This document shows, piece by piece, positions 32,474-59,539 of a DNA stretch of 60,143 nucleotides (position 1 is the first letter of the stretch; each line of letters starts with the position of its first letter). The stretch lies in contig JAGBAS010000022.1 of the NCBI GenBank assembly GCA_017938885.1, positions 1 to 60,143 on the forward strand, in the 5' to 3' direction. The notes beneath the pieces were generated by a model, which saw only the letters and a program-made list of their open reading frames with translations, was not told the DNA's origin and did no database searches. This DNA comes from Clostridia bacterium (lineage in GTDB: Bacteria > Bacillota > Clostridia > Oscillospirales > CAG-272). The translations under genes and the position numbers were made by a program.

Positions 32474-32498
32474 TTCGTGAAGAGAAGGGCGGAGAGAC

Positions 32499-33053: not shown

Positions 33054-33075
33054 TCCGCAATGAAATGAACGTATC

Positions 33076-33107
33076 AGCTGCATCCCTAAAACAGATGCAG
33101 CTTTTTT
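33076..33107 (+). terminator. intrinsic terminator ending the SPFH operon
   Basis: Stem AGCTGCATC (33076-33084) pairs with GATGCAGCT (33094-33102), followed by a T-run to 33107. Confidence 0.65.
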
Positions 33108-33268
33108 GCGTGAAAGTCCTTTCTGTAAGCTGCACAAGGAAAATGGATGGTTGTATTTCACAGAAACATCTTCACTCGATGAACATAAAAAATACACATA
33201 AAATTACACCGGAATTCATGCTATATTTACAAAAAGCGTCGAATTGTAAAAAAACGCGTAACTATCTA

Positions 33269-33297
33269 TTGACTTTTTTGCCGTTTGGATTTATAAT
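33269..33297 (+). promoter_or_regulatory. sigma-A-type promoter of the SNF2/giant-protein transcription unit
   Basis: TTGACT (33269-33274), 17-nt spacer, TATAAT (33292-33297), in an AT-rich intergenic region. Confidence 0.6.
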
Positions 33298-33331
33298 ATA
33301 AACTATATATTTGTATAATGTTGGTGAGAAC

Positions 33332-34507
33332 ATGATCAAAACCTTTTATCGAAAACAGTCTCAGGAGAGGACGTTTTTTCGGGCTGAAATGAAGATCCGC
33401 TCCATGGCCTACGGGAAAGGGATTCACGATGAGCTGTCGAAATGGCTGGAGCAGACAACGACCGCCTGGAATGATCCGAAAGAACCCTTTCTCCTGTCGG
33501 AAGAAGGACATTTCAGCGGAAATCCCGTGTGCCGTTGCCGTACCGAGTTCATGAAACCTGGGCAGTCTGAAAACGCCGTCCTGCTCAAGAGACGCAGTAA
33601 AGCCAGACAACGCCTGTGGTTTAACCGTTACCTGTACGAAATCGGGAAGGAAGGGGAGCTCATCCTGAACCAGACGAATACGGGCGTATTCCTTGGCTCC
33701 GAGCTTAAGGCCTGGGGGGCAACCGTGCTTTGGGAAGAAAAGAAACCGGCTTTTTACCTTTTGGTGATCGGAAAGCCCGTCGGCGAGTCGGATTCACGCC
33801 TCTCTGTCTATGCACTGCAAGAAAACGGCATCCCGAAAAGAGACCCCGTGGCCGGAGTCCCCATGAGCAATACCCTGGAGGCCAAAAGCCATCTCTGTTG
33901 CTTTGGCAGGCACGTCTTTACCGTCCATGATAACCATCTGGATTATTTCTATTTCTGTCCCGAGCAATCCGGTCTTGAAAATGTAGCCATAGAATCCGAT
34001 ACCCCCAACCATGAAAAGGAATGCTGTCAGAACGTGACCTCTGCCGTCGTTGCAGACCGGAACGGAAGGGTCTACTGGCAGTCCGGAAACCGCGTGTATT
34101 CCTTCCCGGTGGGATTCCCCCGCAGAATTGCTTACGTGGACGGCGGCCAGCAGTATACCCATTTGCGCATCCATACGTATCAGGATTCACTTTTTCTCTA
34201 CCGCGTAAACCGACTGAATCGCGACTATGAATGCATGGAATGCACCTTTACGGAGAGCGCACGGGGAGAAGAGGGTATTGAATGCCGCCTTTTCAACCGA
34301 GGAAGCGTGAGAAACGTGTTCTACTACGAGCAAAATCAAGAGACCTTTTACATCAAGCTACAGCCCAACGCCTATAAGGCAAGCCTGATTTGCCGAAGAG
34401 ACGGTGCCGAGCAGCTCCGCTCCTCCTTCGTAACCGAGGGGATTGAGGAGATCTTCTGCGATGACGGCTTTCTGTACGTTGGTACCTGCTTCGCTCGCGG
34501 AAGTTGA
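33332..34507 (+). CDS. hypothetical protein (orphan, likely beta-rich, Cys-containing)
   Basis: 391 aa from the ATG at 33332 (RBS GGTGAG). It has no TM segment or signal peptide, and I recognise no family. Confidence 0.55.
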   Translation: MIKTFYRKQSQERTFFRAEMKIRSMAYGKGIHDELSKWLEQTTTAWNDPKEPFLLSEEGHFSGNPVCRCRTEFMKPGQSENAVLLKRRSKARQRLWFNRYLYEIGKEGELILNQTNTGVFLGSELKAWGATVLWEEKKPAFYLLVIGKPVGESDSRLSVYALQENGIPKRDPVAGVPMSNTLEAKSHLCCFGRHVFTVHDNHLDYFYFCPEQSGLENVAIESDTPNHEKECCQNVTSAVVADRNGRVYWQSGNRVYSFPVGFPRRIAYVDGGQQYTHLRIHTYQDSLFLYRVNRLNRDYECMECTFTESARGEEGIECRLFNRGSVRNVFYYEQNQETFYIKLQPNAYKASLICRRDGAEQLRSSFVTEGIEEIFCDDGFLYVGTCFARGS

Positions 34508-34567
34508 AGCAAACGAAACAGATCGTTTAAAAATGAAAGATAAGTTCATGAACATGAGGAGTTCCGT

Positions 34568-37500
34568 ATGATTGATAAGAATGACGTCAAAATGCCGGTC
34601 CAGAAAAAGGACGAGCACATCAACCAAAGCAAGGATCAGATCGATCGCATTGAGGAGCTGCTCCGCCTGGTCAACGAGGCGGATAACCGCCAGGAGCTTC
34701 GACTGAAGCAGGATTATTACGCCAAGTTCCATTGGTTCGGTAAGCGCCTGGACAGCGAGGATCGTAAGAGTTATTTCTCTTACCAGGAGGAAGCAGTCTA
34801 CGATTTCGTGTTCAACCTGAACAAGAGCGGTATTCTGTCCGACCAGGTTGGTATGGGTAAGACCATTGAGGCAGGTATGATTATCAGTGAGCTGGCCAGC
34901 CGAAATGAGTTGCGTTCCCTGCTCATCATCGTTCCCAACGAGATCATGGCAAGAAAATGGGAATATGAGCTGAGCAGTAAGTTCGGTATCCAGAAACTGG
35001 TGACCGAGAACAGTCGAAAAGAAAAGATTGTCTATCCCGAGGCGCGTTCGGTAAAGAATTTCGACGAATTTGCCCGTCTGGTCTTTGACTGTATGATGAG
35101 CGAGAAATTCCGCTCCTACTATGAAAGCATTACCGAGGATTACACGGATTCCGACCGCATCCGTCCCGCCTACAGCTATATCCACCAGTATAAGAACAAC
35201 CCCGCCCATCCAGAAACCATGGCCGAGGTTCTTTCCCGTTTCCTGGCACAGGATATTGAGGAAACCGTGAAAATGATCAACGAGGGACTCATGGATCAGT
35301 ACGACGACGGCAGCGTTCAGGTCGTATTCGACGGCAAGAGCTTCTCGATCACCGGGACTGACTTCTCGGTTCCCTATACCTATGATGCAGATGGCGATAT
35401 CGCCCGCTTTATTCGCGGCCGCGTCATCCGTGATCTGGAAAGGGAGATCAATGTTTCCCGTTTCTTCAATATCTATCGCAATTTCTTGATGCATGAGCTC
35501 TGCGGTCTTCTCTCTCTGATCGGATACTACTTCATGACCATTCCCGAGGAAATGGAGTCCATCAGTAAGCGTATCACAAAGGAATACCCCATCCTCATCA
35601 TTCCCATCGCCTATTCGGATTATTCGGGTGACGAAGTCAAGCTGTCCCCCTTCCTCAACCGCGTGCTTCAGAATGAAGTTCGTAGCTATAAGCATGAATA
35701 TAATATCCAGACGGCAAACGGCATGACCGAGAGCGTCTACGAGCCCTACCGCGTCATCGACTTCTTCATCGATGTGGGCTACCAGACTCTCATCGTAGAC
35801 GAGGTGCACGATTACATCGATGCCGACAAGAAGATGAGCCGCAAGGAGTTCCACGCCAATAATGGCTACAGCGAGTATCCTTCTGAGACCTATAACCGCT
35901 ACGAGCTCTTCGATGACTACTATTTCGTTCCGAAGAACAGCCTCTACAAGAAACTTAAGGCGTTGGCCGATCAGGCAAACCGTAAGATCTTCCTGACCGC
36001 AACCCCCATTAAGTCGGATATGGTGGACTTTTACCTTCTGACCCTCTTGGCCAGTAATAAGGACTCCGAGGATTACCGCCGAATATCCGAGGTTCTTCAG
36101 GGCGGCTCGGGAATGCTGGCAGGCGATATGGTTGAGCAGACCATACACCGTATCTACGACTCCTTCAAGTCATGCGTGGAAACCGAAACAGGTCCCTACT
36201 TCTGTAGTTACTGCAACGAGTTCCTTCGCTTGGAGGAGCGTGACAGTGCCACCCGCGGCGATAAGCACGTCGAGCGGTACGTCTACCCCTACTTCAACAA
36301 CGATTATCTGAAGGCGAACGTAAACCATCCCGATAAGATCACCGAATACCTCAACAGCCATATCAGTTATATGTCGGTTGAGGAGATCGTCATGGAGCTG
36401 ATCCTCGCCTACATGGCTGAAACCCAGGAGAACGTGGATATTGTCTCGGCAATGAATCGCTTGATCCACCTTCTCGGCAGCGGCGCGGATTTCCTCCAGA
36501 CCCGTGTCATCTTCCGAGCCCTGCTCAACAACACCGTCAAGCTCCGCTTTGAGGAAGACTTCACCAAGGAGGACGGTCAGCCCATCAAGCGCATTCGTGA
36601 GTTGCTGGCCATCAACGAAGGCCCCCGTAAATGGCATAAGACCTACCGCAAGTACGGTATCCGCCATACCCGTCACCAGACCTATAACCTTGCCCAGTGC
36701 GACAAGCTGGAATGCCTCAATCAGAATAAGATCGATCGATTCCGTAATCTGCCTCTGTGGCCCCGTCGGAACGGCCGCGTCATCTATCTTTACCGTGACG
36801 ACGTATTCTTTGACAGCTTCCTGGACGTGCGTCGTCCCAGGCCGACCTTCGGAAATACCGATATCGTCATGAGTGATCTTCCTAATATTGATAAAATTGC
36901 CGGCGAAGATCATGAAAAGCAGGAGCGCTTCGATCATGCCGTTGATATTTTCCAGTACATCAACGATGCCATGAGCGGCGGCGACCCCATCAATCACGAG
37001 CCTCTCAGCCGTTTCTACGATGCCGTAGAGCTGGATGACGCCGGTATGGTCGATTTCAAGCTGACGATGATCAGCCGACTGATGGGAAGTCAGGGCTCCG
37101 ATCTTGGCTCCATCAAGGGAAAGGTCTTGCTCTTTGCCGAGCATGACCGCGAGAAGATCCTCGAATGGTTCCGTTATCAGAAGTGTGCTCCCCTGTTCGA
37201 CCCCAAGCAGGGCGATACGTTGGATCCCAAGAAGGAAGCGGAGTACGCTGAAAAATGGAGCAACTACCGAGCCCCGAGTGACATCAACCGAGATTGGGCC
37301 GTCACCGAGAGTGCCGAGGATATGGATCGCTTCAGCGGCAACCTCCTGGTCGTTATTGACCCCAAGCGTTATGAAAAGGGCGTTGACCTTCAGAAGGCCA
37401 ATACCATGATCAACTTCGATATCAATTACTGCCCTCTGAAGATGGAGCAGCGCATCGGCCGTATCGACCGTATCCGTCCTTCGGATCAGAACCAGCAGAT

Positions 37501-38479
37501 CGATATCATCTCCTTCGTACCCCTGAACAATATGAGCGGATACGTCATCAATTTCTTCGCCAATGAGCTCAAGATGTTCACCCAGTGGATGGGTGAGACC
37601 ACGGGTATCGTTTCGGTTCCCGATGAGGACACCCAGAATCGCAAGGGCGGCGAATCCGTTGCCTTTGAGGAAAAGGTGGAGGCTCTGGATAAATTCTACA
37701 CCGGCATTTACGATCTCTGCCGTATCGACGTTGATGAGAAAACCCGTAAGGCTCTGGCAAAGCAATTCGTGGAGACCTTCCGTACCAACGATTTCAGAAC
37801 CGATTCGGATTTCCGCTTCCTCCAGCAGTTCAAGAACAGCTTTGACAAGGCCTTCCGCAATTCGCTGTCCACCAAGCGTCAGGGCTACCGCGCAGGGAAG
37901 AGCAACGAGCGCGTTATGCGCTTCAATTGCACCAACGGTATCTTCGCAGATTGCGCCTCCGATAAGTGTGAGGGCTGCTCCAATCGGGAAAACTGCAACG
38001 ACAAACAGGGCATTATGCGCAATAAAGCCAAAGATTTCGTTGCGGCCGTGCAGAGCTTCTATAAGGACGGCGCAGAGTTCTATAAGAAGGAACTGACAGA
38101 TTTCAAGAACACCTATAAGAAGACGACCATTAACGATCCCGAGCTCCGTAAGGAGGTCGAAATGCAAGAGGAATGGCTGACGAGACGGCAGAGAAGCTTC
38201 GCCTCCGCCCAGGAGCAGTCCAAGAAGCTCATGGACAAGATGAAGCTTGAGCGTAAGGAGCCCGGCTCCTTCACCGTCCCCCTGGAATCCTTCGACGAGC
38301 TGTTTACCCCTATGAAGAAGCTCTACTGGGACGATACCGTCATGACCTACCTCCAGCACGTTCTCAAACGCTTCCACGATCAGTGCGACAGCGTGCTCAA
38401 GAGCGCGGCACTGTTTGAGAAATTCGTCAAGACCCTGGCCGTGGCAGATTTTATGAATAACATGGAAGGAAACGTATAA
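34568..38479 (+). CDS. SNF2-family (SF2) ATPase/helicase-like protein with two large insertions, a Cys4 knuckle and a charged helical tail
   Basis: Motif I DQVGMGKT (GMGKT at 34850-34864). Motif Ia LIIVPNE. Motif II DEVH (35798-35809). Motif III IFLTATP (~35987). Motif IV-like KVLLFAEH (~37121). Motifs V/VI NFDINYCP...QRIGRIDR (37448-37471). RBS GAGGAG. Confidence 0.85.
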   Translation: MIDKNDVKMPVQKKDEHINQSKDQIDRIEELLRLVNEADNRQELRLKQDYYAKFHWFGKRLDSEDRKSYFSYQEEAVYDFVFNLNKSGILSDQVGMGKTIEAGMIISELASRNELRSLLIIVPNEIMARKWEYELSSKFGIQKLVTENSRKEKIVYPEARSVKNFDEFARLVFDCMMSEKFRSYYESITEDYTDSDRIRPAYSYIHQYKNNPAHPETMAEVLSRFLAQDIEETVKMINEGLMDQYDDGSVQVVFDGKSFSITGTDFSVPYTYDADGDIARFIRGRVIRDLEREINVSRFFNIYRNFLMHELCGLLSLIGYYFMTIPEEMESISKRITKEYPILIIPIAYSDYSGDEVKLSPFLNRVLQNEVRSYKHEYNIQTANGMTESVYEPYRVIDFFIDVGYQTLIVDEVHDYIDADKKMSRKEFHANNGYSEYPSETYNRYELFDDYYFVPKNSLYKKLKALADQANRKIFLTATPIKSDMVDFYLLTLLASNKDSEDYRRISEVLQGGSGMLAGDMVEQTIHRIYDSFKSCVETETGPYFCSYCNEFLRLEERDSATRGDKHVERYVYPYFNNDYLKANVNHPDKITEYLNSHISYMSVEEIVMELILAYMAETQENVDIVSAMNRLIHLLGSGADFLQTRVIFRALLNNTVKLRFEEDFTKEDGQPIKRIRELLAINEGPRKWHKTYRKYGIRHTRHQTYNLAQCDKLECLNQNKIDRFRNLPLWPRRNGRVIYLYRDDVFFDSFLDVRRPRPTFGNTDIVMSDLPNIDKIAGEDHEKQERFDHAVDIFQYINDAMSGGDPINHEPLSRFYDAVELDDAGMVDFKLTMISRLMGSQGSDLGSIKGKVLLFAEHDREKILEWFRYQKCAPLFDPKQGDTLDPKKEAEYAEKWSNYRAPSDINRDWAVTESAEDMDRFSGNLLVVIDPKRYEKGVDLQKANTMINFDINYCPLKMEQRIGRIDRIRPSDQNQQIDIISFVPLNNMSGYVINFFANELKMFTQWMGETTGIVSVPDEDTQNRKGGESVAFEEKVEALDKFYTGIYDLCRIDVDEKTRKALAKQFVETFRTNDFRTDSDFRFLQQFKNSFDKAFRNSLSTKRQGYRAGKSNERVMRFNCTNGIFADCASDKCEGCSNRENCNDKQGIMRNKAKDFVAAVQSFYKDGAEFYKKELTDFKNTYKKTTINDPELRKEVEMQEEWLTRRQRSFASAQEQSKKLMDKMKLERKEPGSFTVPLESFDELFTPMKKLYWDDTVMTYLQHVLKRFHDQCDSVLKSAALFEKFVKTLAVADFMNNMEGNV

Positions 38480-41238
38480 TGCGACCCAAGAAACACAAGA
38501 AAAGGAATAACGAGGTGCCGGTGCTGAGCTACGCCGATCAGCTTGCGCAACGATTCGACAAGCACGAAGGCCGTCTCCTCGTGGCTGACCTTTGTAAATA
38601 CCGTGTCCTGGGCGCTATGCAGGAGATTATGGCCAAGCGGGGCGAGAAGACCTACTTGTTTGTAACGAGTGATCGACGCGCCGCTCTGGAGATGCGGCAC
38701 ATCCCTCCTTGCACCGAAGACACTCCCGTGATCGCCTCGATTCAGGATTTCATGAGCTTGATTTGTGCCTGTGCCGGCGAAAACGTCCCTTGTGAGGATA
38801 CCCGACTGCGGCGTCTCACCAAGGAATTCATCCTCAGCTATCCTCGACTCATTGTATGCTTTGAAGAGAACGGTGCTCCCATCCTCCACGGCTCCCTTTG
38901 CATGACCAGAGAAAACGACGGCGTATATAGCACGGTCGAGAAATCCCACTACTGTGTGTCGGATTTCTTGGCCGCCTGCCAATACGACATGACCGTGTTG
39001 GATGACGTATACGGTATGATCCGTATGGCCATGGTCACAAACGAGGAGAAGGGAAGCCTGTCCCCACTGGAGCATGAACTCCTGAGCTTCGGCGGACAGG
39101 ATTTCGTTACACCGCTGTCCCATTCCTATAAGCGGCTCCTGAAGCTGGCAGACAGCTCGGAGTATTGCTTGATTCTCTCGGATATCCTGATGGATCGCAG
39201 TACCGTCAGCCTCTATGCCGTCATGAATCTTCTCCGCCCCTCCTTCTCCTACCGGAAAGCAAAGAAGCATGTTTCGGAAAGAAGCGGCGGCTACGCCTAT
39301 GAGTGCGATTTGGTCTACACCAACTTGGATTATTCCTTAGAGAATGACACCATTCTCAGCATCTGCCTCCAGGAGCTTGGCGGCAGAGTCGGTCTTTTCC
39401 CCGAACGCATCTATGACCTCGAAGATACCGTCCGCGAGCGCTTTTCCTACCTGTCCCGTGAAGAGGTATATCTCATGGCTGTGTATACCCAGGCACTCCG
39501 AGAGGGAACCGACGTCATGAACAGCGCGGTTATTCGCTATATCGAGGAGGACGAAGGCTGTGCCATGGCCTTCTGTGATATCTTCTTCGGAGATGTCTTG
39601 AAGGGAAAAATGGAGAAGCATTATCCCTTGTATCTTACCGACATGACCGAAGACGGAATTCAGGAGCTCAGGACGCTTGCTGAGGAACAGGGCTGTTATG
39701 CTGAATCGCTTCCTCCGCTTCCTCCCCAACGGGCAACCTACGTCTACCACGATGAGTCTGCCTTTGAGGATCTGCTTCGATGCGAGGATCCTCAGCTCTT
39801 GCAGCGTCTCCGTTGCGGAAGCACGGATAAGCCCTTCGACACTTCTGAGCAGGCTTATTCGGTTTTGAAAAACGGAAACGACGATGATTACACCTGTATC
39901 TGCATTCGTAAGCTCATAGAAGACGAGGGCCTGGAAACGCCCGTTCTCGTGGTTTCGGAGCATTCGGAAGAGGATCTGTGCACACGCTTCTCCGAATTGC
40001 TTCCGGGGACTTTCTGCTCCCATGATCCGGCAGAGCTCCTTCTTCCCGAGGAACAGCGTCCCTCGGTTCTGATCCTGGATCATGAGCATTTCCGTTCTCT
40101 CGCATTGCCGATCAAGGTGAAAACCGTGGTTTTCCCGAGCGGGCTCTACGATATCGAGCGTTTCAGCCTTTTCCTGAGAAAGGCTGTGCTGATGAGCGAT
40201 GGAAAAGCGGCGATCCGCGTACCCGTCAGTTATCGCAACCTCAGCGGCCATATGGCTGATCTTTGGTCTGCTTCGGTTCTTGAGAATACAGGAGCCTTGC
40301 TTCCTATGGATAATTCCGAAATATTCAGCTTCGAAGGGAAACGTATCTCCTACGGCGAAATCGTCCGTGAACTGGACGACGTGTACTGCGGTATGATCCG
40401 TCTGACCGAAGGGGGAAATGTGGACGTTGATGAGCTGTCTGATAAGCTTCGCGCCATTACCGTTCGGTATCCCGTTGCCCAAAAGGCTCCGGCAAAGCTG
40501 GAGGTCATTCGGGAGGATCTTTCTTTCCTGGCCGAGCTTTCGACTGCCTATCGTCTCATTTATGCCAACAGCACAACCGTGGGCTCTGAGGGCTATCGGT
40601 CGTCCGTGACGGTTTGCAAGAAGAAGATTCGGGAGGGCAAGCCTAAGGCTGTGTCTACCGACAAGAGGCTTGCGGCGAGAGAAAAGAAGATCTTTGATAT
40701 AAACGAAGAGAACCGTACCATGAGCTTCAACGTCTGCGTCGAGCAGGTTGCGGGCAGATGCTCGCCCTTAAAGGACGATTGCGGAGATTGTCCTCGGTAT
40801 CAGGAGCTGATGCTCAATCGATTCGATATCTTTGCAGCGGCCGTTGATACGTTCTTCAGAAAAGCCGCCGAGATGCTCACAAGAATTGCAGAGGTTGAAC
40901 GGGTGAGGGAACGAGACATCATTATAAACGACGTCAATTCCCGCGCCAAGTATTTCCAGGGTCTGTATGCAGACGTGACCTTCTTAGGAGAGCGTGCGGC
41001 TACGCATCTGGAAGCCCTCCGCGTGACCGCCGATCAGAGACCGACGCTTTTCTATGTGGACTACGACGCTGTTGACAATATCCGACGGCAGGTACGGAAG
41101 GCATATCTCTTGCTTTTCGGTGAGTATTATGCCACCATCACGGAAGCCTTGAAACAGGTCAGCGAACCAATGAAGACAGCTTATGAAACTGCCGGGCAGG
41201 CGGGTGCATCCCGAGATGCCAAGCCTGCAACCAAATAA
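38479..41238 (+). CDS. catalytically degenerate paralogue of the adjacent SNF2-type ATPase
   Basis: The start ATG overlaps the SNF2 stop (TAATG). Block-by-block similarity to the SNF2 protein is retained while the catalytic residues are lost: ADLCKYRV replaces DQVGMGKT, DDVY replaces DEVH, LILSDIL replaces IFLTATP, VLVVSEH matches VLLFAEH, and ERFSLFLR replaces QRIGRIDR. The FN.C-x7-C-x6-C-x2-C motif is shared. Confidence 0.65.
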   Translation: MRPKKHKKRNNEVPVLSYADQLAQRFDKHEGRLLVADLCKYRVLGAMQEIMAKRGEKTYLFVTSDRRAALEMRHIPPCTEDTPVIASIQDFMSLICACAGENVPCEDTRLRRLTKEFILSYPRLIVCFEENGAPILHGSLCMTRENDGVYSTVEKSHYCVSDFLAACQYDMTVLDDVYGMIRMAMVTNEEKGSLSPLEHELLSFGGQDFVTPLSHSYKRLLKLADSSEYCLILSDILMDRSTVSLYAVMNLLRPSFSYRKAKKHVSERSGGYAYECDLVYTNLDYSLENDTILSICLQELGGRVGLFPERIYDLEDTVRERFSYLSREEVYLMAVYTQALREGTDVMNSAVIRYIEEDEGCAMAFCDIFFGDVLKGKMEKHYPLYLTDMTEDGIQELRTLAEEQGCYAESLPPLPPQRATYVYHDESAFEDLLRCEDPQLLQRLRCGSTDKPFDTSEQAYSVLKNGNDDDYTCICIRKLIEDEGLETPVLVVSEHSEEDLCTRFSELLPGTFCSHDPAELLLPEEQRPSVLILDHEHFRSLALPIKVKTVVFPSGLYDIERFSLFLRKAVLMSDGKAAIRVPVSYRNLSGHMADLWSASVLENTGALLPMDNSEIFSFEGKRISYGEIVRELDDVYCGMIRLTEGGNVDVDELSDKLRAITVRYPVAQKAPAKLEVIREDLSFLAELSTAYRLIYANSTTVGSEGYRSSVTVCKKKIREGKPKAVSTDKRLAAREKKIFDINEENRTMSFNVCVEQVAGRCSPLKDDCGDCPRYQELMLNRFDIFAAAVDTFFRKAAEMLTRIAEVERVRERDIIINDVNSRAKYFQGLYADVTFLGERAATHLEALRVTADQRPTLFYVDYDAVDNIRRQVRKAYLLLFGEYYATITEALKQVSEPMKTAYETAGQAGASRDAKPATK

Positions 41239-51636: not shown

Positions 51637-52395
51637 ATGAGCGAAAATTCAAAAAGCCTGACCGTGAACAGTATCGGTATTTGCGTAGCGGCAACCACCG
51701 ATAAGAAAACGCCTCCCTGCATCATAGTCGCCTATTCCGTCGGTCAGACAGCAGAGGATATTCGCTTACTGGCCATGAATCTCCCCCGTAAGGGCCTATA
51801 CGGAAGGGGAGATTTTCTGAACGCGATCGCCAAGGCCGAAAAAGCACGCCAAGTGATTTACAAGGACTATAACTGTGAGGATAAGGATCTGTATATCTGC
51901 CGTCCCGCAGTCGGAGATACATATGAGATTATTCCGAGAGACGAAAGAGCCCAACGTTTCGGACAGGGCTTTGCCGAGATCGAAACGGCCGCTTTGAAAT
52001 TCGAGGTAGAGGAGCTCTCGGTTCATATCGGGAAAAAGCTTTCCTGTCGTTTCCTCTATCGGGTACAAGCCGAATATCCTGTTGACAGCTACGAGTACGC
52101 TACCGTCAACGCCTATAACGCCTGCCTTCTGGGACGAGTGTTTTCCCGCGAAGAGTTCCGCCTGGAAACGGGAGACGGAAAAAAAGCGAAATACGAGGTA
52201 CGTACTTCGGAGTCCAAATACGTGGATATGTCCACGCTCTACGTCCGTTCCGTCAAAAATTCCGAGCAGGGTGTGGTGGAGTACTACGTTACAGAGCCGC
52301 TTTTGGAGATCAACGGAGAGGATATGACCCGAAAAACCTACCAGATCATATACAAGAATATTTTGAAGGATTACAGTATTAACAGATTCGATTAA
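51637..52395 (+). CDS. hypothetical cytoplasmic protein (orphan)
   Basis: 252-aa ORF with a GAGG RBS, wedged between the two giant genes. It has no TM segment and I recognise no family. Confidence 0.55.
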   Translation: MSENSKSLTVNSIGICVAATTDKKTPPCIIVAYSVGQTAEDIRLLAMNLPRKGLYGRGDFLNAIAKAEKARQVIYKDYNCEDKDLYICRPAVGDTYEIIPRDERAQRFGQGFAEIETAALKFEVEELSVHIGKKLSCRFLYRVQAEYPVDSYEYATVNAYNACLLGRVFSREEFRLETGDGKKAKYEVRTSESKYVDMSTLYVRSVKNSEQGVVEYYVTEPLLEINGEDMTRKTYQIIYKNILKDYSINRFD

Positions 52396-52414
52396 AAGGG
52401 ATGGACAAAGCATC

Positions 52415-55400
52415 ATGAGTAGAAAAAAGAAAAACCCGAAAAATACCCCCGCAGAGCCCGCGCTTGAAACCGACGCGGATTATTCTGCACAGGAAACCGA
52501 AGCCACGGCAGGGGAGCAGGAAGAGGTCGTCTCCGAAGAGAGTACGTCATCCGATTTTGATTCGGTTGCCGAGACCCCAACGGCTGTTCCCGAGCCCGAT
52601 ATGAATTCCGGAGCGGAAGAAGCGGATAAGCCGGAAGAGACTGCCGAAGGCGTGGGACATGCGGAACAAGCTGAGGCTTCTGCGACGGAAAACACGATGG
52701 AGGCTACTGGAATACCCGATGTCACGCCCGCTTCTCAGGACGAGATTACTTCCGAAGAAGAGGTGTCCTCCGAGGAGCAAGGCTCTGTCGAGTCGCTTAC
52801 TGAGGGCGATATGGCTGCGTCAGAGCCGGAAGAAGCACAGGAAGAGCCTACGGAGGATTTACCCGAGCCGGAGCCCGAGGTGTACGTCGGCCCGAACGAT
52901 GATATGGTCTTTAGAGAGGATATTCATCTTGAGGAGATCCCCCCCGAAGAGCCCCTGCCTATCTCTGAGGCCGCCCGCTATTTGAACCGCCGCGTTCCCG
53001 GTGAGCTGAATAATTCCGCCATCATGTTGAATCGCGTGGGCTGTAATCTGGGTGACTGCAAAAAGAAGGATCGATACCTGGTTACGGACCGCTACGTTGT
53101 CCTTGAATACGGCTATCTTTCCCGTATCCCTCTCAGCATCCTGTGGCGGATCGCCCACGGGGAGGATGCTAAAGCCATCGAAGCCGAGCGAGCCAAGAAC
53201 GCAAAGAAAAAGAAGCGACACTACGGCTTGATGGATCCCGAGCATTCCCTGGAGATCACCTATACAGAGGCACAGTGGAGAGGGGATCTGGCGCGTCTGA
53301 CCGCGTATATTCACAAGAAGAAGGGCGAAGAAGAGAATCTTCCCGTTTGCCTGGATGATGTGTGGCTCCTCAGCGAATTCGATTTCCGTGCGGCTTTCCT
53401 GCACCGAGCTACCCAGGCGATCCGTCTGATCCAGTTGGCCATCCTGGCCGAGGCGCGGCAGAATCGTATTCTGGAGGAGACCTGGGAGAATATCCGTCAA
53501 TATAAGTACCGCGTCCAGCTGGAAAAATCCAGGGGTGGTATCTTCACCGAGGAGGATGCATACAGACTTCGTTGCCATGGTATCCGTTACCTGAACGATC
53601 TTCGCAAGCATACCGTCTACGAGATCAAAAATACGCTCATCGAGCACGATATGTGCCACGTGGTGGAGGAGATCAACGACGCATTCCGCGAGGATCTGGC
53701 CAGACGGCGGGATCGTCGCCTTCAGGTTGGGCCCTTCCTGTCGGGCTTCATAAATCTGATCGCAACGGGTGTCGTTGCTTACATGTATCAGTATACCCTC
53801 ATTAAGAACCAGCTCATGACCGTGGTTATCATAGCCCTGCTGGCTCTGTGGGCCATCACCATTCCGACCATCCTGTTTGCCGCGATCCGCGCCGTATACC
53901 GACGGCACACGCGCCGCAAGGATTACTACTATTTCAACCGTCCCGTCCGCATAACGACAGCACTGTATTCCCTTGCCTCCATATTCATTCTGCTGTCCTG
54001 CGTTGTGTTCTACGAGCGTTATGACGGATACGACAGCCAGTATTTTTACCGTGATCTTGAAGGCGGCAGCATCGCCATTGCCGGTCGATTCAACAAACAG
54101 ATGACCAGCTGCGAGATCCCTTCGTCCATTGACGGTAAGCCCGTCACCGAGGTGGATCTGTTCGCCTTCTACAACAGCCCCATCCACACCGTGACACTCC
54201 CCGAAAGCATTCAACGCGTGGACACCGGTGCATTCATGAACTGCTCTCAGCTCAAGAATGTAACTCTGAACCAGGGGCTGAGCGAGATTGGGAATCACGC
54301 TTTCCGCGAATGTTTACAACTGAATCGGATCGAGCTCCCGAGCTCTGTTACCTCCCTCGGAACCAATGCATTCCGAAATGCCGCACTCACCTCCATCGAT
54401 CTCAGCGTGACGCCTCTGACTGAGCTTCCCGAGGGTAGCTTCCGGGATTGCATCTATCTTACGGAGCTGATTGGTTTGGAGCAGATCACGGTGATCGGTG
54501 ATTACGCCTTCAACGGATGCCAAAGTCTTCCTGCGCTCTCCTTCTCCTCGGAGTTGGAGACCATAGGAGAGGGTGCTTTCGCATACTGCAACGGCATTAT
54601 GGAGCTGACCGTTCCCAACGGCGTTACCTCCATCGGTAAAAATGCCTTTGACTACTGTCAGAATCTCAGACGGATCACCCTGCCCTTCGGAGCCGTTTCC
54701 CCTACCGACGTGGATCACGGCTCTCTGAACGACATAGTCCATTTCGACAGCAAGGGCTTCCTCGTAACTTTGGTCTTTACGGGCAATACTGCGCCCGGCT
54801 CCAATGCGCTGAGGGGTATTGATTGGGTCGAAGCCATCATCCTGGAAGAGGGAATTACCGAGATCCATTCGAACGCGTTCAGCGGAAAGAAAAAACTCAA
54901 GAGCATATATCTGCCCTCGTCCCTGGAAAAGCTGGGTGATAACGCTCTGCGGGATTGCACCGCGCTGACTGAAATTTCGGGAGGGGAAAGCCTCCGAATC
55001 CTCGGCAAGAATGCCCTGCGCGGATGCGAAAAGCTGACCGAGGTTGGGCTTCCCGCGCTGGAGGAGATTGGCGAGAACGCTTTCCGCGATTGCACGGCAC
55101 TTTATAACCTGGAAGGATTGGCGAATGCGACAACCATCGGTGACAGTGCCTTCCGGGATTGCGTCAAGCTGAATCGGGTCAGCTTCTCTGAAAATCTGAC
55201 CGATATCGGTGCCGCCGCCTTCCGCGGATGCCACGCTCTGGTTGAGATTCGTGTTCCCTCCGGCGTTACCTCCATCGGGCTCGGGGCCTTTACGGATCTT
55301 CCCGCACTCAAGTCTGCTTCGGTTCCGTTTACCGGTACCAACCCCGAAAACAGTCTGGATATGCCCCTGTTCCTCATCCTGGATTGCAACGATAAGGATC

Positions 55401-57565
55401 GCGCAATCTCGCTTGAAATCACCGCTATGCAAACCCTGGAGCGCACCTGCTTCCGCGGATGCTCCTCTGTCTCGATCCTGACCGTCGGTGATACCTGTCA
55501 AACTTTAGAGGAAGCCGTATTCAAGAATACCTCCATCCGAGAGATCACGCTTCCCGAATCTCTCACGGCTATTCCGAAGGATGCATTCAAGAACTGCGAC
55601 AGCCTCACGACCGTAAAGGGCGGATTGGTTTCCGAAATCGGCGAATCTGCTTTTGAGAATTGTAAAAAGCTCGTAAGCGTTGCAGGTATCGCCACGGCTC
55701 AGGTTATTCAGGACAAAGCTTTCAAAGGCTGTTCTGTCCTGGAGAACGTAACCTTCAGCGAGGCACTTGAAAGTATCGGAAAGGAAGCATTCCGAGGATG
55801 CAGTAAGTTCACAGCGATCACCGTCCCGAAGGGCACGGCATATCTGGGTGAATCGGCCTTTGCCGAAACAACAGCGGTGAAGAGCATCACCGTTCCCTTT
55901 GCCGGTATGAATGCTGCGGGAGATCCTACCGGATCTCTTGGCGATGTGTTTGCCTGTGGCGACGGTGCTTCGGATGTCAGCGTCACGATTACCGTCATGA
56001 CCGATACGAAAGAGACCTCCTTCGCAGGCTGTACGGCCATTACGCGCATGACCATTGCCTCTCCCATGACGAGACTGGGAAGCGGAAGCTTTGCAGGACT
56101 TTCGGTTCAGGACGTAACCCTTCCCGATACCCTTACCGCCATCGGCTCCCGCGCCTTTGCGGATTGCGCTCATCTCAAGAGTATTTCCGGAACCGACAAC
56201 GTCGTGTCCTTGGAGGAATCTGCATTTTTCGGATGCCGCTCTCTGACTGCCTTTGACCTCACCAATGTCCAAAGCATCGGGAATACCTGCTTCGAAGGCT
56301 GTCCTTCTCTCGCCAATATCGGAGAACTCAAATCGGTCAATCTCATTGGCGCGAACGCTTTCAAGGACTGCTCCTCTCTGAAATCCATTATCCTGTCCGC
56401 TCCGCTGGAGCAGATTCCGGAATCCGCCTTTGCCGGTAGCGGCATAACCGAGATGGTACTGCCCGAAACGGTAACGGCCCTTGGCAAGTCCTCCTTCCGG
56501 AATTGTATTGCCTTGGTAAAGATCACTCTTCCCGCCGGCCTCAACAGCATTGGCGAGGAAGCTCTGCGCGGCTGTACTGCCCTCACGGAGATCAATACCG
56601 ACACCACGGCTCTGAACCGGATCGATGCATACGCATTTGCGGATTGCACGAGTCTGAGTACGTTGACACTACCCGTCACCGTAACCCGAATTCCCGAAGG
56701 TATGGCACAGAATTGCCGGAACCTGAGTCTTGCGGGCTTGGATCAGCTCCCGCTGACCGAAATCGGTGGCCATGCTTTCGAGAATTGCTCCTTCCTCAAT
56801 ATGGCACTCCTCCTGGGTGATGGACTGATGACCATTGGGGAAAAGGCCTTCTACGGATGCTCCGCCGTTTCTCTCTACGTTCCCGATTCTGTGAATTCCA
56901 TCGGTAGCTCGGCTTTCGATGCCTGCCCCAAGCTTGCAGAGGTGGTTCTGCCCTACGTGGGAAGCTCGGTAGATACTGTCGGGGCCGGTTACAGCCATGT
57001 ATTCGGTACCACAAAGGTGCAAAACCTAACACTGACCAACATGACGGTCATCGAAGACGATACCTTCAAGGGAGCAGAGAACAGCTTGAGAAGTCTTACC
57101 CTGAACGAAGGCGTGACCGAGATCCAAAAGAAGGCTTTCCGAAATTTCTCGGTGCTTTCCGAAATCACCCTTCCCGAGACGCTGACTCTCATCGGAGCCT
57201 CCGCCTTTGAGAATTGTACCTCTCTGTCTTCTGTCCGCATTCCTGCGGCCGTTGCCGAGATCCCCGCCAAGAGCTTCAAGAACTGCACAGGCCTCAAGAA
57301 GTTGGAGCTCGTTGAAGGAAATCTGACCGTTTTGGGATCGGAAGCCTTCAGGGGCTGTACCTCTCTGAAAGAAGTAACCTTCCCGACAGGGGTCGTTACC
57401 CTGGAGAGAAACACCTTCCGTGACTGTATCTCCCTGGTGGCCGTGACCTTCTCGGATACCATGACGGACGTTCACAAGAAAGCCTTCATGGGCTGTAATC
57501 CCGCAACCGTAAATATTCCCGAAAATCTGACATCTCAATACGCCGGGCTCTTCGAAAGCAAGTGA
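52415..57565 (+). CDS. giant (1716 aa) receptor-like membrane protein: acidic disordered N-terminus, ~280-aa helical cytoplasmic domain, ~3 TM, ~1150-aa BspA-type LRR ectodomain
   Basis: An E/S/T/A-rich tract covers aa 1-165. The TM block lies at about 53726-54020. It is followed by dozens of LRR_5-type units (IG..AF..C..L..I.LP..(L/V)..I). Confidence 0.85.
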   Translation: MSRKKKNPKNTPAEPALETDADYSAQETEATAGEQEEVVSEESTSSDFDSVAETPTAVPEPDMNSGAEEADKPEETAEGVGHAEQAEASATENTMEATGIPDVTPASQDEITSEEEVSSEEQGSVESLTEGDMAASEPEEAQEEPTEDLPEPEPEVYVGPNDDMVFREDIHLEEIPPEEPLPISEAARYLNRRVPGELNNSAIMLNRVGCNLGDCKKKDRYLVTDRYVVLEYGYLSRIPLSILWRIAHGEDAKAIEAERAKNAKKKKRHYGLMDPEHSLEITYTEAQWRGDLARLTAYIHKKKGEEENLPVCLDDVWLLSEFDFRAAFLHRATQAIRLIQLAILAEARQNRILEETWENIRQYKYRVQLEKSRGGIFTEEDAYRLRCHGIRYLNDLRKHTVYEIKNTLIEHDMCHVVEEINDAFREDLARRRDRRLQVGPFLSGFINLIATGVVAYMYQYTLIKNQLMTVVIIALLALWAITIPTILFAAIRAVYRRHTRRKDYYYFNRPVRITTALYSLASIFILLSCVVFYERYDGYDSQYFYRDLEGGSIAIAGRFNKQMTSCEIPSSIDGKPVTEVDLFAFYNSPIHTVTLPESIQRVDTGAFMNCSQLKNVTLNQGLSEIGNHAFRECLQLNRIELPSSVTSLGTNAFRNAALTSIDLSVTPLTELPEGSFRDCIYLTELIGLEQITVIGDYAFNGCQSLPALSFSSELETIGEGAFAYCNGIMELTVPNGVTSIGKNAFDYCQNLRRITLPFGAVSPTDVDHGSLNDIVHFDSKGFLVTLVFTGNTAPGSNALRGIDWVEAIILEEGITEIHSNAFSGKKKLKSIYLPSSLEKLGDNALRDCTALTEISGGESLRILGKNALRGCEKLTEVGLPALEEIGENAFRDCTALYNLEGLANATTIGDSAFRDCVKLNRVSFSENLTDIGAAAFRGCHALVEIRVPSGVTSIGLGAFTDLPALKSASVPFTGTNPENSLDMPLFLILDCNDKDRAISLEITAMQTLERTCFRGCSSVSILTVGDTCQTLEEAVFKNTSIREITLPESLTAIPKDAFKNCDSLTTVKGGLVSEIGESAFENCKKLVSVAGIATAQVIQDKAFKGCSVLENVTFSEALESIGKEAFRGCSKFTAITVPKGTAYLGESAFAETTAVKSITVPFAGMNAAGDPTGSLGDVFACGDGASDVSVTITVMTDTKETSFAGCTAITRMTIASPMTRLGSGSFAGLSVQDVTLPDTLTAIGSRAFADCAHLKSISGTDNVVSLEESAFFGCRSLTAFDLTNVQSIGNTCFEGCPSLANIGELKSVNLIGANAFKDCSSLKSIILSAPLEQIPESAFAGSGITEMVLPETVTALGKSSFRNCIALVKITLPAGLNSIGEEALRGCTALTEINTDTTALNRIDAYAFADCTSLSTLTLPVTVTRIPEGMAQNCRNLSLAGLDQLPLTEIGGHAFENCSFLNMALLLGDGLMTIGEKAFYGCSAVSLYVPDSVNSIGSSAFDACPKLAEVVLPYVGSSVDTVGAGYSHVFGTTKVQNLTLTNMTVIEDDTFKGAENSLRSLTLNEGVTEIQKKAFRNFSVLSEITLPETLTLIGASAFENCTSLSSVRIPAAVAEIPAKSFKNCTGLKKLELVEGNLTVLGSEAFRGCTSLKEVTFPTGVVTLERNTFRDCISLVAVTFSDTMTDVHKKAFMGCNPATVNIPENLTSQYAGLFESK
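54071..57520 (+). repeat. in-frame BspA-type leucine-rich-repeat array
   Basis: Recurrent ~23-25-aa units containing AF..C..L, seen throughout the translated ORF. Confidence 0.75.
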
Positions 57566-57587
57566 TGCATGGCCCTGCGGCGTTCGC

Positions 57588-57610
57588 CGGGGAGGGAACT
57601 ACCCTCCCCG
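57588..57610 (+). other. intercistronic hairpin without U-tract
   Basis: CGGGGAGGG (57588-57596) pairs with CCCTCCCCG (57602-57610), with a 5-nt loop. Confidence 0.4.
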
Positions 57611-57652
57611 AGAACCCTGAGCACCCAATCGATTACCGACAAGGAGACCGAA

Positions 57653-59539
57653 ATGATCTATACCTGCCCCAACTGCGGTGGCTACTTTGATGCAAAGCAA
57701 TTCAGGGCTACCGATGGTAAGCAAAATGCCGAAGCCAAATGTAAATACTGCGGCTCGACCTTCAATTTTAAATCCATCCATACGTCGCACGTCGTAAACG
57801 GATACAATTACCTGGCCGCCGGTGAGTACAGCGGTGCGTACCGCTCCTTCAGCTATGCGTTGGAGCTCACCAAGGACGAGAAAGGTGAGAGCATTCTGGA
57901 GCTTGCTTACGTGGACGCCTATCTCGGCCGTGCGCTGGCTCAGTTTGACGTACAGGTCGTATATGAGGAGGAGGTTGGCGGCGAGGAAGCACCGCCCGTC
58001 ATCATCTGTCATACAGCCCACAAGGAACGCTTCGAGGACTGCCCGGATTTTCAGAACGCCGTCTATCTGATTGGGAAGATCGCCAACAGCGGCCACAGAG
58101 CCCGTCAGGAAAAGCGTTTGCTGTATTATGCAGACTACATCGATGGTATCAAGGATATGTACGATAAGCTGGAGCGGGAGGGGAAGGAGTATCAGCTCTT
58201 CGTCGCCTATGAGGATCTGTCCAAGGATCGCGCCGAGGCTTATGTCGTCGCACAGAAGATCTGTAAGAGTATTCCGTCCAAGCATATCGACAGGATCTTT
58301 TGCCCCGATCCCGACGAGGCTGAGGTCAACATGATCCACTATGAAGCGAAGATCCTCTACGCTCTGAATCATTCCCAATGTATGCTGGCTCTCGTGGATC
58401 GGGACGTAGACAACCGTCTCATCGAAATGTACACGCAGTTCGACGAGATCCGTCGCCGTCCCGTCAATCGGCAAAAGGGCATGGGACTTGGCTTCGTGCG
58501 CTACAGCGGCCAATTCCAGCTCCATATCGGAGATCGAACCGTAACCGAGAATATTTTTTCGGATACCGATTCCAAGCGTATCAACAGCTTTGTACTGCGC
58601 GCTAACGGTATGACCGTTGACTTTGACTCTGACGAAGCTGAAGAAATCGACGGAGGAGGTCCCCCAAGTTTCATTATTGAGGATCTGATTGATGATTTAC
58701 CGGTGGGTACTGCTCCTCAATTTACCGATGAAAACCGCGTGATTTTCGGGAAATACCCCCAGAGCCGCGAGAACAGTCAGCTCGTCAAAAAGCATTTCTT
58801 CGATCGCTTCGGCCGCCCTTCCCCCGACGCTCCCGGCGAATGGTTGCCTTTATTCAAAGGGAAGAAGGATTCGATCCCCTATACCTGGTATGTGGAGGAC
58901 ACCGTAAACGATTCCCGTTACAGAGCCGTTTACTTCACCCGATACCGTGAGGTGTATGCCGTCAGCGAGAATTCTCCCAAGCCCGAGGTACAGCGCAAGA
59001 ACGATTACGTGCTCCGAGATATCCATGTCTTTAAGTACGAGCCTGTGATCTGGAACGTCATGAAGCGTTCTGAGGGTTATCCCGGAACCGCTAATCTGAT
59101 CGCCTCCATGGGCTTGGATGCCGTCTGCTTTAATCAAGCACCCTACGGCAATGAATTTGATTACGCGTCTCTCTCTCAATGGATGAACCGGGAAATGCTT
59201 GCCAATATGCTCAGCAGTGACGAGCTCAGCTGGCTCTATTCCCGCAACGGCCTGCATCTTCGCCTGTTGGATGCGGATATTGAGTTGGATTCTCCCGCCA
59301 TCCGAGAAAAAGTAAAGAACTACAATATCGGTGGCAGTGATTATTTCCGCTGTGTCGGCGGAAGCGTTCTTGAAAGGAACGTAAACGCTTACTGGGTCGA
59401 AAGTGACCGAGAAGTCCCGGCAGATCGAGCAGCCGTGATCTTTCCTTCGGTCGATGCGGAGGTTCGGGATATGCCCCTGGATTGTACCACCGTAGCCGTC
59501 GTTCCGACTCTGAAAATCCGTCTCCCCATCGAAGAATGA
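57653..59539 (+). CDS. cytoplasmic Zn-ribbon / TIR-like / DUF6273-like protein
   Basis: The ATG at 57653 is preceded by AAGGAG. The Zn ribbon reads CPNCGG...CKYCGS. The segment YQLFVAYEDLSKD...RIFCPD...HYEAKILYALNHSQCMLALV (~58185-58450) follows the TIR strand/helix pattern. The C-terminal FGKYPQ...VIWNV...SLSQWMN...YWVES...VVPTLKI (58738-59530) resembles DUF6273. Confidence 0.65.
   Translation: MIYTCPNCGGYFDAKQFRATDGKQNAEAKCKYCGSTFNFKSIHTSHVVNGYNYLAAGEYSGAYRSFSYALELTKDEKGESILELAYVDAYLGRALAQFDVQVVYEEEVGGEEAPPVIICHTAHKERFEDCPDFQNAVYLIGKIANSGHRARQEKRLLYYADYIDGIKDMYDKLEREGKEYQLFVAYEDLSKDRAEAYVVAQKICKSIPSKHIDRIFCPDPDEAEVNMIHYEAKILYALNHSQCMLALVDRDVDNRLIEMYTQFDEIRRRPVNRQKGMGLGFVRYSGQFQLHIGDRTVTENIFSDTDSKRINSFVLRANGMTVDFDSDEAEEIDGGGPPSFIIEDLIDDLPVGTAPQFTDENRVIFGKYPQSRENSQLVKKHFFDRFGRPSPDAPGEWLPLFKGKKDSIPYTWYVEDTVNDSRYRAVYFTRYREVYAVSENSPKPEVQRKNDYVLRDIHVFKYEPVIWNVMKRSEGYPGTANLIASMGLDAVCFNQAPYGNEFDYASLSQWMNREMLANMLSSDELSWLYSRNGLHLRLLDADIELDSPAIREKVKNYNIGGSDYFRCVGGSVLERNVNAYWVESDREVPADRAAVIFPSVDAEVRDMPLDCTTVAVVPTLKIRLPIEE

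Follow-up and report, generated by a model that had tools for sequence, protein, structure and literature searches.

Pseudo-enzymes that partner active paralogues are well known among kinases, some AAA+ and ABC ATPases and superfamily 1 (SF1) helicases. For the helicases, crystal structures have defined RecC of RecBCD and AddB of AddAB as helicase-fold subunits that lack the ATPase motifs and partner an active helicase. In eukaryotes, the incomplete SNF2 domain of Arabidopsis MOM1 and the inactive C-terminal cassette of Brr2 represent folds kept for non-catalytic, regulatory or scaffolding roles. Here, we analyzed a 60,143-nucleotide (nt) stretch of DNA from a Clostridia bacterium (assembly GCA_017938885.1, contig JAGBAS010000022.1, positions 1–60,143 of the forward strand; hereafter the window), in which the gene of a 1303-amino-acid (aa) SNF2-family ATPase is directly followed by the gene of a 919-aa protein. 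Our analysis reveals that the 919-aa gene is a paralogue of the upstream SNF2 gene, a tandem duplicate whose product has lost the catalytic motifs, and we refer to it as pseudo-SNF2. A helicase with a dead helicase-like partner is an arrangement of a known kind; new here is its occurrence in SNF2, in an uncharacterised and potentially new system. An initial annotation of the window, made by eye, had held the arrangement to be undescribed for bacterial SNF2 proteins, and in agreement with this we found no bacterial SNF2 example of a pseudo-enzyme partner in the libraries or literature searched, nor any description in that literature of a bacterial SNF2/pseudo-SNF2 pair or of this operon.

RecBCD and AddAB resemble the pair in that a bacterial motor is encoded adjacent to a helicase-like subunit that has RecA-like lobes and has lost its ATPase signatures, and RecC and AddB provide the closest functional analogy for an anchor or scanner role. 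By comparison, RecBCD and AddAB are SF1 helicase-nucleases of known function (double-strand break processing and Chi recognition), whereas the pair described here has the SNF2 fold of superfamily 2 (SF2), contains no fused nuclease and is known from genes and monomer models. MOM1 and Brr2 are distinct in being eukaryotic, unrelated in sequence and not translationally coupled with an active parent.

The 919-aa protein is a paralogue of the upstream SNF2 protein

Pairwise similarity between the two proteins is modest: BLASTP aligns a 242-column C-terminal block at E = 3e-7 and the DEVH/DDVY block at E = 0.14, and the window SNF2 matches the pseudo-copies of other loci over the motif II–III block at E = 1.8e-7 and 1.9e-5. 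A word-indexed search found five relatives of the 919-aa protein; an exhaustive profile search of 1.84 billion representatives found 83, about 50 of which are full length (850–930 aa; clusters at 50% identity). In profile–profile comparison with hhalign, the SNF2 family was matched by a 7-sequence profile with a probability of 99.8 (E = 2.7e-28) and by a 52-representative profile with a probability of 100 (E = 5.5e-42), the latter over 751 columns that pair residues ~88–876 of the 919-aa protein with residues 298–1258 of SNF2. Controls run with the same set-up gave E = 0.015 for an unrelated family, that of the 659-aa protein encoded next in the window, and E = 0.0048 for 20 generic SNF2 proteins, setting the noise floor at about 0.005–0.02. 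Since generic SNF2 proteins score at noise level, the relationship is specific to the SNF2 lineage of this locus and is carried by lineage-specific regions rather than by generic helicase motifs. The 919-aa protein has no match in Pfam, PHROGs, PADLOC, NCBIfam or PDB sequences and falls outside the SNF2 sequence profiles; its relationship to SNF2 is detectable only through its own parent lineage.

The hhalign alignment pairs TLIVDEVHDYI of the DEVH block with MTVLDDVYGMI, IFLTATP with LILSDIL, KVLLFAEH with PVLVVSEH and MEQRIGRIDR with IERFSLFLRK, and also pairs the Cys regions. The paralogy proposed by eye is thus significant in a proper profile comparison, and the blocks on which it was built (DEVH/DDVY, LTATP/LSD, KVLLFAEH/PVLVVSEH, QRIGRIDR/ERFSLFLRK and the Cys motif) all reappear in the same order and as originally written. 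Three further details of that proposal hold in part. For the Walker A and motif Ia region, residues 32–72 of the 919-aa protein and 87–131 of SNF2 are collinear with the main alignment, and a predicted strand (32–36), helix (40–54) and strand (59–63) follow one another as beta1, the P-loop position, alpha1 and motif Ia should, but the local N-terminal profile match (residues 40–89 against SNF2 106–173) has E = 0.004–0.02, which is noise level and leaves the Walker A pairing plausible. The description of the copy as full length is true of its domains but not of its chain, which is 384 aa shorter than SNF2 and lacks about 55 N-terminal residues as well as a ~150-residue lobe-1 insertion (SNF2 ~150–300) located between motif Ia and the next core strand of SNF2. 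Finally, both proteins do share a late four-cysteine (Cys4) motif, which in SNF2 comprises C1129/C1134/C1137/C1143; C1121, counted into the motif by eye, lies outside this conserved cluster and its position is occupied by Ser in 63 of 75 SNF2 relatives.

The copy retains the SNF2 fold and has lost the catalytic motifs

The AlphaFold2 (AF2) model of the 919-aa protein, computed from a 52-sequence alignment, has a mean predicted local distance difference test score (pLDDT) of 89 and a predicted template modelling score (pTM) of 0.86. In a Foldseek comparison with the PDB, RapA is the best match (E = 7.6e-9), followed by INO80, ISWI, Rad54, DDM1, ALC1, CSB, CHD and ZorD, with about 60 SNF2/SF2 chains at E ≤ 1e-3; the leading matches RapA, INO80, ISWI, Rad54, DDM1 and CSB span E-values of 7.6e-9 to 1e-4. 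As modelled, the protein has two RecA-like lobes of the SNF2 type, so that the lobes and the significant similarity on which the by-eye proposal depended are both recovered. Besides the lobes, pseudo-SNF2 retains the helical regions specific to the family and the Zn/helical domain at the C-terminus.

The 1303-aa protein is recognized as an SNF2 protein by Pfam (SNF2-rel_dom, 37.1 bits with a cut-off of 24.9; Helicase_C, 31.3 bits with a cut-off of 23.5), and its helicase motifs I (GxGKT), II (DExH), III (TAT) and VI (QxxGRxxR) are all intact. Among the 97 full-length relatives collected, DQVGMGKT, DExH, TATP and QRIGRIDR are invariant or nearly so, distant clades included. By comparison, the corresponding positions of the 52 pseudo-family representatives are degenerate. 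Motif I reads (R/K)-L-F-L-V-D-x-S-K, with the glycine-rich P-loop found in none of them (0/52); motif II reads D-(D/N/E/G)-V-Y, with Glu in 6/52 and His in 2/52; motif III is L-S-D; and the motif VI segment, ERFSLFLRK in the window protein, contains no conserved arginine. GK[ST] or DEAH strings do occur in three pseudo-family sequences, but away from the motif positions. As had been claimed from the window alone, the catalytic signatures are therefore destroyed in the copy: they are lost across the 52 representatives and kept in 97 of 97 SNF2 sequences. The same loss in all representatives indicates that it is family-wide and old, and because the catalytic motifs are lost while fold and descent are those of SNF2, the 919-aa protein is a pseudo-SNF2 and not an active member of the family.

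The SNF2 and pseudo-SNF2 genes are linked across related loci

The SNF2 relatives were divided by similarity to the window protein into tier 1 (at least 42% identical; 75 clusters), tier 2 (28–33%) and tier 3 (1440–1470 aa). Eight tier 1 loci were examined (the window, L001, L002, which equals L003, L004, L086, L089, L090 and L091), and in all eight a pseudo-family member stands directly after SNF2 (hmmsearch E ≤ 1e-143), with a stop/start overlap in seven. In the window, the SNF2 stop codon TAA (38477–38479) and the pseudo-SNF2 start codon ATG (38479–38481) share one nucleotide, confirming the earlier reading that the 919-aa open reading frame (ORF) begins on the last A of the SNF2 stop; the sequence at 38470–38481 is aaacgtaTAATGc. 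The same TAATG junction is found in L001, L002 and L004, while L086 and L089 have an 11-nt overlap, L090 has a GTGA overlap and L091 has a 4-nt gap. In L086 (14049–14121), the start assigned to pseudo-SNF2 by the gene caller was a TTG within the conserved GGRLFLAD motif, which gave a 61-nt gap; moving the start to the in-frame ATG at 14049 restored the N-terminus and gave the 11-nt overlap with the SNF2 stop. A Shine-Dalgarno-like GGAAGG lies 10–15 nt upstream of the window pseudo-SNF2 start, inside the conserved ...NMEG codons of SNF2. The conserved SNF2 C-terminus ...FMNNMEG (window 38455–38481) is encoded by ...ATGGAAGG..., which doubles as the Shine-Dalgarno-like sequence, and protein and translational constraints may coincide at this junction. 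SNF2 and its copy are co-encoded and probably translationally coupled.

In tiers 2 (L005/L007 and L087) and 3 (L088), no pseudo-SNF2 was detectable among the neighbour genes. The SNF2 stop overlaps the start of the next gene in these loci as well, and in tier 2 the next gene encodes a homologue of the Cys-rich protein that follows pseudo-SNF2 in the window. A ~930-aa protein encoded upstream of SNF2 in tier 2 was considered as a displaced pseudo-SNF2 and rejected, hmmsearch and hhalign both being negative; a comparison of the tier 3 neighbours (625, 720 and 1703 aa) as SNF2-like candidates was likewise negative. The SNF2 proteins of tiers 2 and 3 (29–33% identical) have all catalytic motifs intact. 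The pair is adjacent in all eight loci of the closest clade but not beyond it, and the pairing cannot be called obligate as a general property of this SNF2 lineage, two sister clades of which have intact motifs and no detectable copy. In a locus from a goat-rumen Clostridia metagenome-assembled genome (MAG; L006, 1493–5836), the SNF2 homologue is apparently split into ORFs of 515 aa and 880 aa and, in common with tier 3, has a 720-aa gene next to it downstream; the split may reflect a frameshift, a pseudogene or an assembly error.

Origin and divergence of pseudo-SNF2

The SNF2 Cys4 cluster is present in 74–75 of the 75 tier 1 sequences and in 0 of the 22 sequences of tiers 2 and 3. The pseudo-family has the invariant cysteines C753, C761, C768 and C771, and MAFFT superposes C761, C768, C771 and N780 on C1129, C1134, C1137 and N1152 of SNF2. 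The four-cysteine cluster is probably a zinc site. Since it occurs only in tier 1 SNF2 and is homologous in the copy, the duplication is placed inside the tier 1 clade. Most simply, the Cys4 cluster arose first, the gene was then duplicated in tandem in the stem of tier 1, and motifs and segments were lost from the copy thereafter. The pseudo-family scores 375 against tier 1, 157 against tier 2 and 75 against tier 3 in hhalign, a trend that is suggestive only, the alignment depths being unequal (74, 18 and 4).

Across loci, identity to the window proteins is 42–55% for SNF2, 38–52% for the 659-aa protein, 22–26% for pseudo-SNF2 and 23–33% for the ~390-aa protein encoded upstream of SNF2. Pseudo-SNF2 is thus the fastest-evolving of the three longer module proteins, the ~390-aa protein being comparably divergent, and its rate is about twice that of SNF2, yet its length is kept: the ORF is intact, at 820–930 aa, in all eight tier 1 loci, and the family has some 20 near-invariant positions besides the four cysteines. 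Fast divergence combined with a retained length, Cys4 cluster and invariant positions is the pattern expected of a pseudo-enzyme with a structural or regulatory role.

Comparison with described bacterial SNF2 proteins

E. coli RapA is the best solved-structure match of both proteins; in a phmmer search with SNF2, the motif I region matches it at E = 1.1e-8. The SNF2 protein scores 64.2 bits against the NCBIfam RapA equivalog NF003426, far below the cut-off of 576, and RapA differs in length, insertions and C-terminal Zn/helical domain and acts alone, without a dead paralogue. The best matches of SNF2 in the PADLOC library are DrmD (E = 5.5e-28) and DpdE (E = 6.6e-22). Against the respective equivalogs it reaches 109 bits for DrmD (cut-off 610) and 97.5 bits for DpdE (cut-off 500), which places it outside DISARM and Dpd; the module proteins scanned had no other PADLOC or NCBIfam system match that would represent DISARM partners, and no Dpd partner was found among the scanned neighbours. 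ZorD is matched at E = 4e-6 over the motif I region only, without ZorABC genes, and the locus is not a Zorya system. Overall, the SNF2 helicases of defence systems (DrmD of DISARM, DpdE of Dpd, BrxHII of BREX and ZorD of Zorya) match only the generic motif I and motif V–VI regions, the defining partner genes of these four systems are absent here, and none of those systems has a pseudo-SNF2. The likeness to Zorya is conceptual and lies in the gene neighbourhood: membrane-protein genes accompany SNF2 and are joined in related loci by nuclease or TIR-like genes. The active protein is accordingly an SNF2-family member outside RapA, DrmD, DpdE and ZorD.

The surrounding module

The conserved core of tiers 1 and 2 consists of SNF2, a Cys-rich protein of ~550–660 aa and a giant protein of 2000–3100 aa. 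The tier 1 module, arranged in the order ~390-aa protein, SNF2, pseudo-SNF2, Cys-rich protein and giant membrane protein, adds pseudo-SNF2 and the upstream ~390-aa protein to this core. Tier 3 has the same gene order with a giant ORF following, and its downstream genes are matched by order. In the other loci, the flanks ended inside the giant gene, and the comparison covers the genes up to that point.

Wherever the downstream flank was read in tiers 1 and 2, a homologue of the 659-aa Cys-rich protein follows SNF2 or pseudo-SNF2, and in the window the gene of the Cys-rich protein begins 12 nt from that of pseudo-SNF2. The 115 homologues of the 659-aa protein are 38–83% identical, so that it is better conserved than pseudo-SNF2; it has 14 invariant cysteines in total, several in CxxC pairs, and a disordered acidic tail. 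Two of the 115 bear functional names, both of them unrelated automated JGI labels, and the rest are unnamed or 'hypothetical'. The 659-aa protein has no match in Pfam, PHROGs, PADLOC, NCBIfam or PDB sequences, and its AF2 model (pLDDT 80.6) has no Foldseek match below E = 0.02 in PDB or BFVD; judged from the model, it may represent a new zinc-binding fold. The giant protein has 4–5 N-terminal transmembrane helices followed by leucine-rich repeat (LRR)-like and MBG repeats (MBG_3, MBG_2) that are predicted to be extracellular, and its homologues are encoded at the equivalent place in the loci of tiers 1 and 2.

A seven-gene block precedes SNF2 in six of the eight tier 1 loci: L002 (2415–9989), L004, L086, L089, L090 and L091. 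Its genes encode an SPFH/Band_7 protein with a Zn ribbon, a 300-aa protein of unknown family, a Snf7 (ESCRT-III)-like 217-aa protein that passes the Pfam cut-off at 29.6 bits, an AAA+ protein carrying AAA_lid_6, a weakly Snf7-like 191-aa protein, a bona fide RuvB-like AAA+ protein fused to a TnsA-like endonuclease and, last, a ~386-aa protein, again of unknown family. In the window, the SPFH/Snf7/AAA/RuvB block is absent and only its last gene (~386–390 aa) is present. A bacterial ESCRT-III-like/AAA+ set joined to SNF2 is unusual in itself. The ~390-aa window protein is homologous to the gene product directly upstream of SNF2 in L002, L004, L089, L090 and L091 (23–33% identity), and in its 398-aa form has no match in Pfam, PHROGs, PADLOC, NCBIfam or PDB sequences. 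In tier 2, the place upstream of SNF2 is taken by the ~930-aa protein mentioned above (L005 1027–3816 and L087 7175–9973). A Zn ribbon lies at its N-terminus, and the two 30%-identical orthologues both match TIR_2 in the same place, at about 25 bits and thus below the cut-off of 28. By its sequence, this TIR-like match hints at an NADase-type effector and a defence role.

Possible roles of the pair

We consider it probable, with some reserve, that the copy is a non-catalytic subunit of the assembly of SNF2, most likely paired with it through the shared lineage-specific domains. A heterodimer of SNF2 and the 919-aa protein is plausible from their sequences: the two are paralogues with catalytic residues lost in one partner only, and adjacency and potential co-expression are conserved (8/8 tier 1 loci adjacent, 7/8 overlapping), tiers 2 and 3 being without the copy. 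Through translational coupling, the pseudo-ATPase would be made in fixed proportion with the motor and would contribute a second nucleic-acid- or partner-binding body that is unable to translocate. The dead copy could then serve as an anchor, clamp or adaptor, as RecC does for RecB and AddB for AddA. The machine would also include the Cys-rich ~600-aa protein and would be functionally tied to the giant membrane-anchored LRR/MBG protein.

Several observations weigh against such a pairing or its details. The anchor or clamp role would be an analogy with RecC and AddB. No fused SNF2–pseudo-SNF2 protein was found among about 400 SNF2 hits or 83 pseudo-family hits. Tiers 2 and 3 share the setting of SNF2 and giant protein without the copy, tier 2 keeping the Cys-rich protein too, which indicates that a dead partner is no intrinsic requirement of the motor. 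For motif I, the correspondence is one of topology, without significant sequence similarity; the comparison of scores between tiers is confounded by alignment depth; and the sequence of the 919-aa protein leaves room for nucleotide binding without hydrolysis. In addition, the binding partner of the copy could just as well be the Cys-rich protein or the giant membrane protein instead of SNF2.

This last point leads to the alternative that survives best, although it is distinctly less probable than pairing with SNF2: the copy may have taken on a new task, as adaptor or scaffold of the Cys-rich 659-aa protein or of the cytoplasmic face of the giant protein, or as a stand-alone DNA-binding regulator, its adjacency to SNF2 reflecting only a tandem-duplication origin and a shared operon. 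The gene order, with the copy between SNF2 and the closely spaced 659-aa gene, fits this alternative, as do the missing fusion proteins and the functioning of tiers 2 and 3 without the copy, and the much faster divergence of the copy relative to SNF2 argues against a tightly co-evolving interface between them. On the other hand, the stop/start overlap with SNF2 is kept in seven of eight loci, and what the two families share best are non-catalytic blocks specific to the lineage, on which paralogue pairing usually builds; neither point is decisive.

It is very unlikely that the 919-aa protein is still an enzyme, hydrolyzing NTP with non-canonical residues (D37, K40, D162 and D175) or having another activity. 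Residues near the former active site are indeed conserved (K40 in 44/52, D175 in 48/52 and D162 in 52/52 representatives), but the P-loop is missing throughout, the catalytic Glu remains in the few sequences given above, the motif VI arginine finger is not conserved and no family-library or PDB-sequence match suggests an activity. The notion that the ORF is a functionless decaying duplicate, or that its similarity to SNF2 is a chance or compositional artefact, can be practically dismissed: the protein is the fastest-evolving in the module and has no family-library match, but the ORFs are intact in 8/8 loci and about 50 clusters at 50% identity, the Cys4 cluster and other positions are invariant, the AF2 fold is highly confident and the hhalign E-value of 5.5e-42 compares with 0.005–0.015 for the controls.

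For the system as a whole, a conflict or defence role is our leading guess from the gene content, suggested by the variable nuclease, TIR-like and membrane-remodelling genes around a conserved core. A conserved core with interchangeable effector and membrane modules is the usual signature of conflict systems. Specifically, the SNF2/pseudo-SNF2 pair might act as cytoplasmic motor in a large, so far undescribed conflict (defence) system that is linked to the envelope in gut and rumen Clostridia, a proposal that we regard as speculative and more doubtful than not. The core of SNF2 and the Cys-rich novel-fold protein would be coupled to the giant polytopic protein displaying LRR/MBG repeats outside the cell, with interchangeable modules comprising the RuvB–TnsA-like nuclease, the two ESCRT-III/Snf7-like proteins, AAA+ and SPFH in tier 1 and the Zn-ribbon/TIR-like protein in tier 2. 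The dead paralogue would form the non-translocating half of an asymmetric SNF2 dimer, holding target DNA or passing on the signal of the membrane sensor, in a logic similar to that of Zorya but realized with other components.

Irrespective of its role, the pair is a clean case, in which parent and dead copy are adjacent, the duplication can be dated by the shared derived Cys4 cluster, the AF2 model is confident and the sister clades without the copy serve as natural controls. It offers a tractable system for studying the contribution that an SNF2 body incapable of hydrolysis makes to a DNA translocase. The locus is also an unannotated conserved operon of uncultured Clostridia that combines a chromatin-remodeller-type motor with giant surface proteins and, in most relatives, with ESCRT-III-like, SPFH and RuvB-nuclease genes, and possibly represents new biology.

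Organization of the window

The window is part of a bacterial chromosome, with genes for AsnA, PurC, a two-component system, GH84, PlsY, H+-pyrophosphatase, TrkH/TrkA and an ECF transporter component. Phage genomes, searched with tblastn, contained no relatives except for one 47-residue Walker A match of SNF2; the window is chromosomal and not phage DNA. Relatives come from uncultured Clostridia, Oscillospiraceae-type MAGs and metagenomes. The features of the module are listed in Table 1.

Table 1 Positions of the SNF2/pseudo-SNF2 module and its motifs in the window
Feature	Position	Strand	Basis
Promoter-like site TTGACT-17-TATAAT	33269..33297	+	Consensus match only, 11/12
Soluble protein, ~391–398 aa, first module gene	33311..34507	+	Homologues directly upstream of SNF2 elsewhere
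Active SNF2-family ATPase, 1303 aa	34568..38479	+	Pfam and intact motifs
SNF2 motif GMGKT	34850..34864	+	
SNF2 motif DEVH	35798..35809	+	
SNF2 motif TATP	35996..36007	+	
SNF2 motif QRIGRIDR	37448..37471	+	
SNF2 Cys4 cluster	37952..37996	+	
TAATG stop/start overlap, SNF2/pseudo-SNF2	38477..38481	+	Sequence read
Pseudo-SNF2, 919 aa	38479..41238	+	hhalign, AF2, Foldseek, motif loss
Pseudo-SNF2 motif I remnant RLLVADLCKY	38572..38601	+	
Pseudo-SNF2 motif II remnant DDVY	39001..39012	+	
Pseudo-SNF2 motif III remnant LSD	39175..39183	+	
Pseudo-SNF2 motif VI remnant	40141..40185	+	
Pseudo-SNF2 Cys4 cluster	40735..40791	+	
Cys-rich soluble protein, 659 aa	41251..43230	+	Homologues, invariant Cys, AF2 model
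Giant membrane protein, 2732 aa	43360..51558	+	Pfam MBG_3/MBG_2, hydropathy scan
Three co-directional genes (252 aa; 1716-aa BspA-type LRR; 656-aa Zn-ribbon)	51637..59539	+	Gaps 78, 19 and 3 nt

From its sequence, the promoter-like site ahead of the ~390-aa gene is likely to be the start of the operon, and no convincing terminator-like site was found between it and the start of the giant gene at 43360. The true start of the ~390-aa protein is probably the ATG at 33332. The three tightly spaced co-directional genes downstream of the giant gene may be part of the system. Their second product, the 1716-aa BspA-type LRR protein (52415–57565; LRR_5 E = 1.7e-223), has no signal peptide; ~170 residues at its N-terminus are acidic and of low complexity, a region of ~470 residues is predicted to be cytoplasmic, and transmembrane helices span residues 470–488 and 513–531, making it the second membrane-anchored giant protein in the gene string. 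The 656-aa protein (57569–59539) has an N-terminal Zn ribbon and a weak match to PADLOC PDC-M14A (E = 5.6e-4). Its similarity to the Zn-ribbon/TIR-like protein of tier 2 is collinear, TIR-like region included, and non-significant (E = 0.1–0.2); it may be a divergent counterpart of that protein at the far end of the operon.

A 184-aa protein (32499–33053) encoded a short distance before the operon promoter has a zinc ribbon of the form CxxC...CxxC at its N-terminus and a hydrophobic tail at its C-terminus, and its gene lies in the lowest-GC stretch of the window (32000–34000; 0.468 versus 0.52–0.57 in the upstream flank). Many long antisense ORFs run across real genes on both strands, for example 34358–36148(–), 36170–38377(–) and 46198–49386(–); no family match supports them, and they resemble artefacts of base composition in a ~53% GC genome. 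Farther upstream, a 1008-aa GH84 beta-N-acetylglucosaminidase (NagJ-like; 9130–12156) with F5/8 type C domains is encoded beside a DUF2079 membrane protein, which fits a host-glycan-foraging gut organism.

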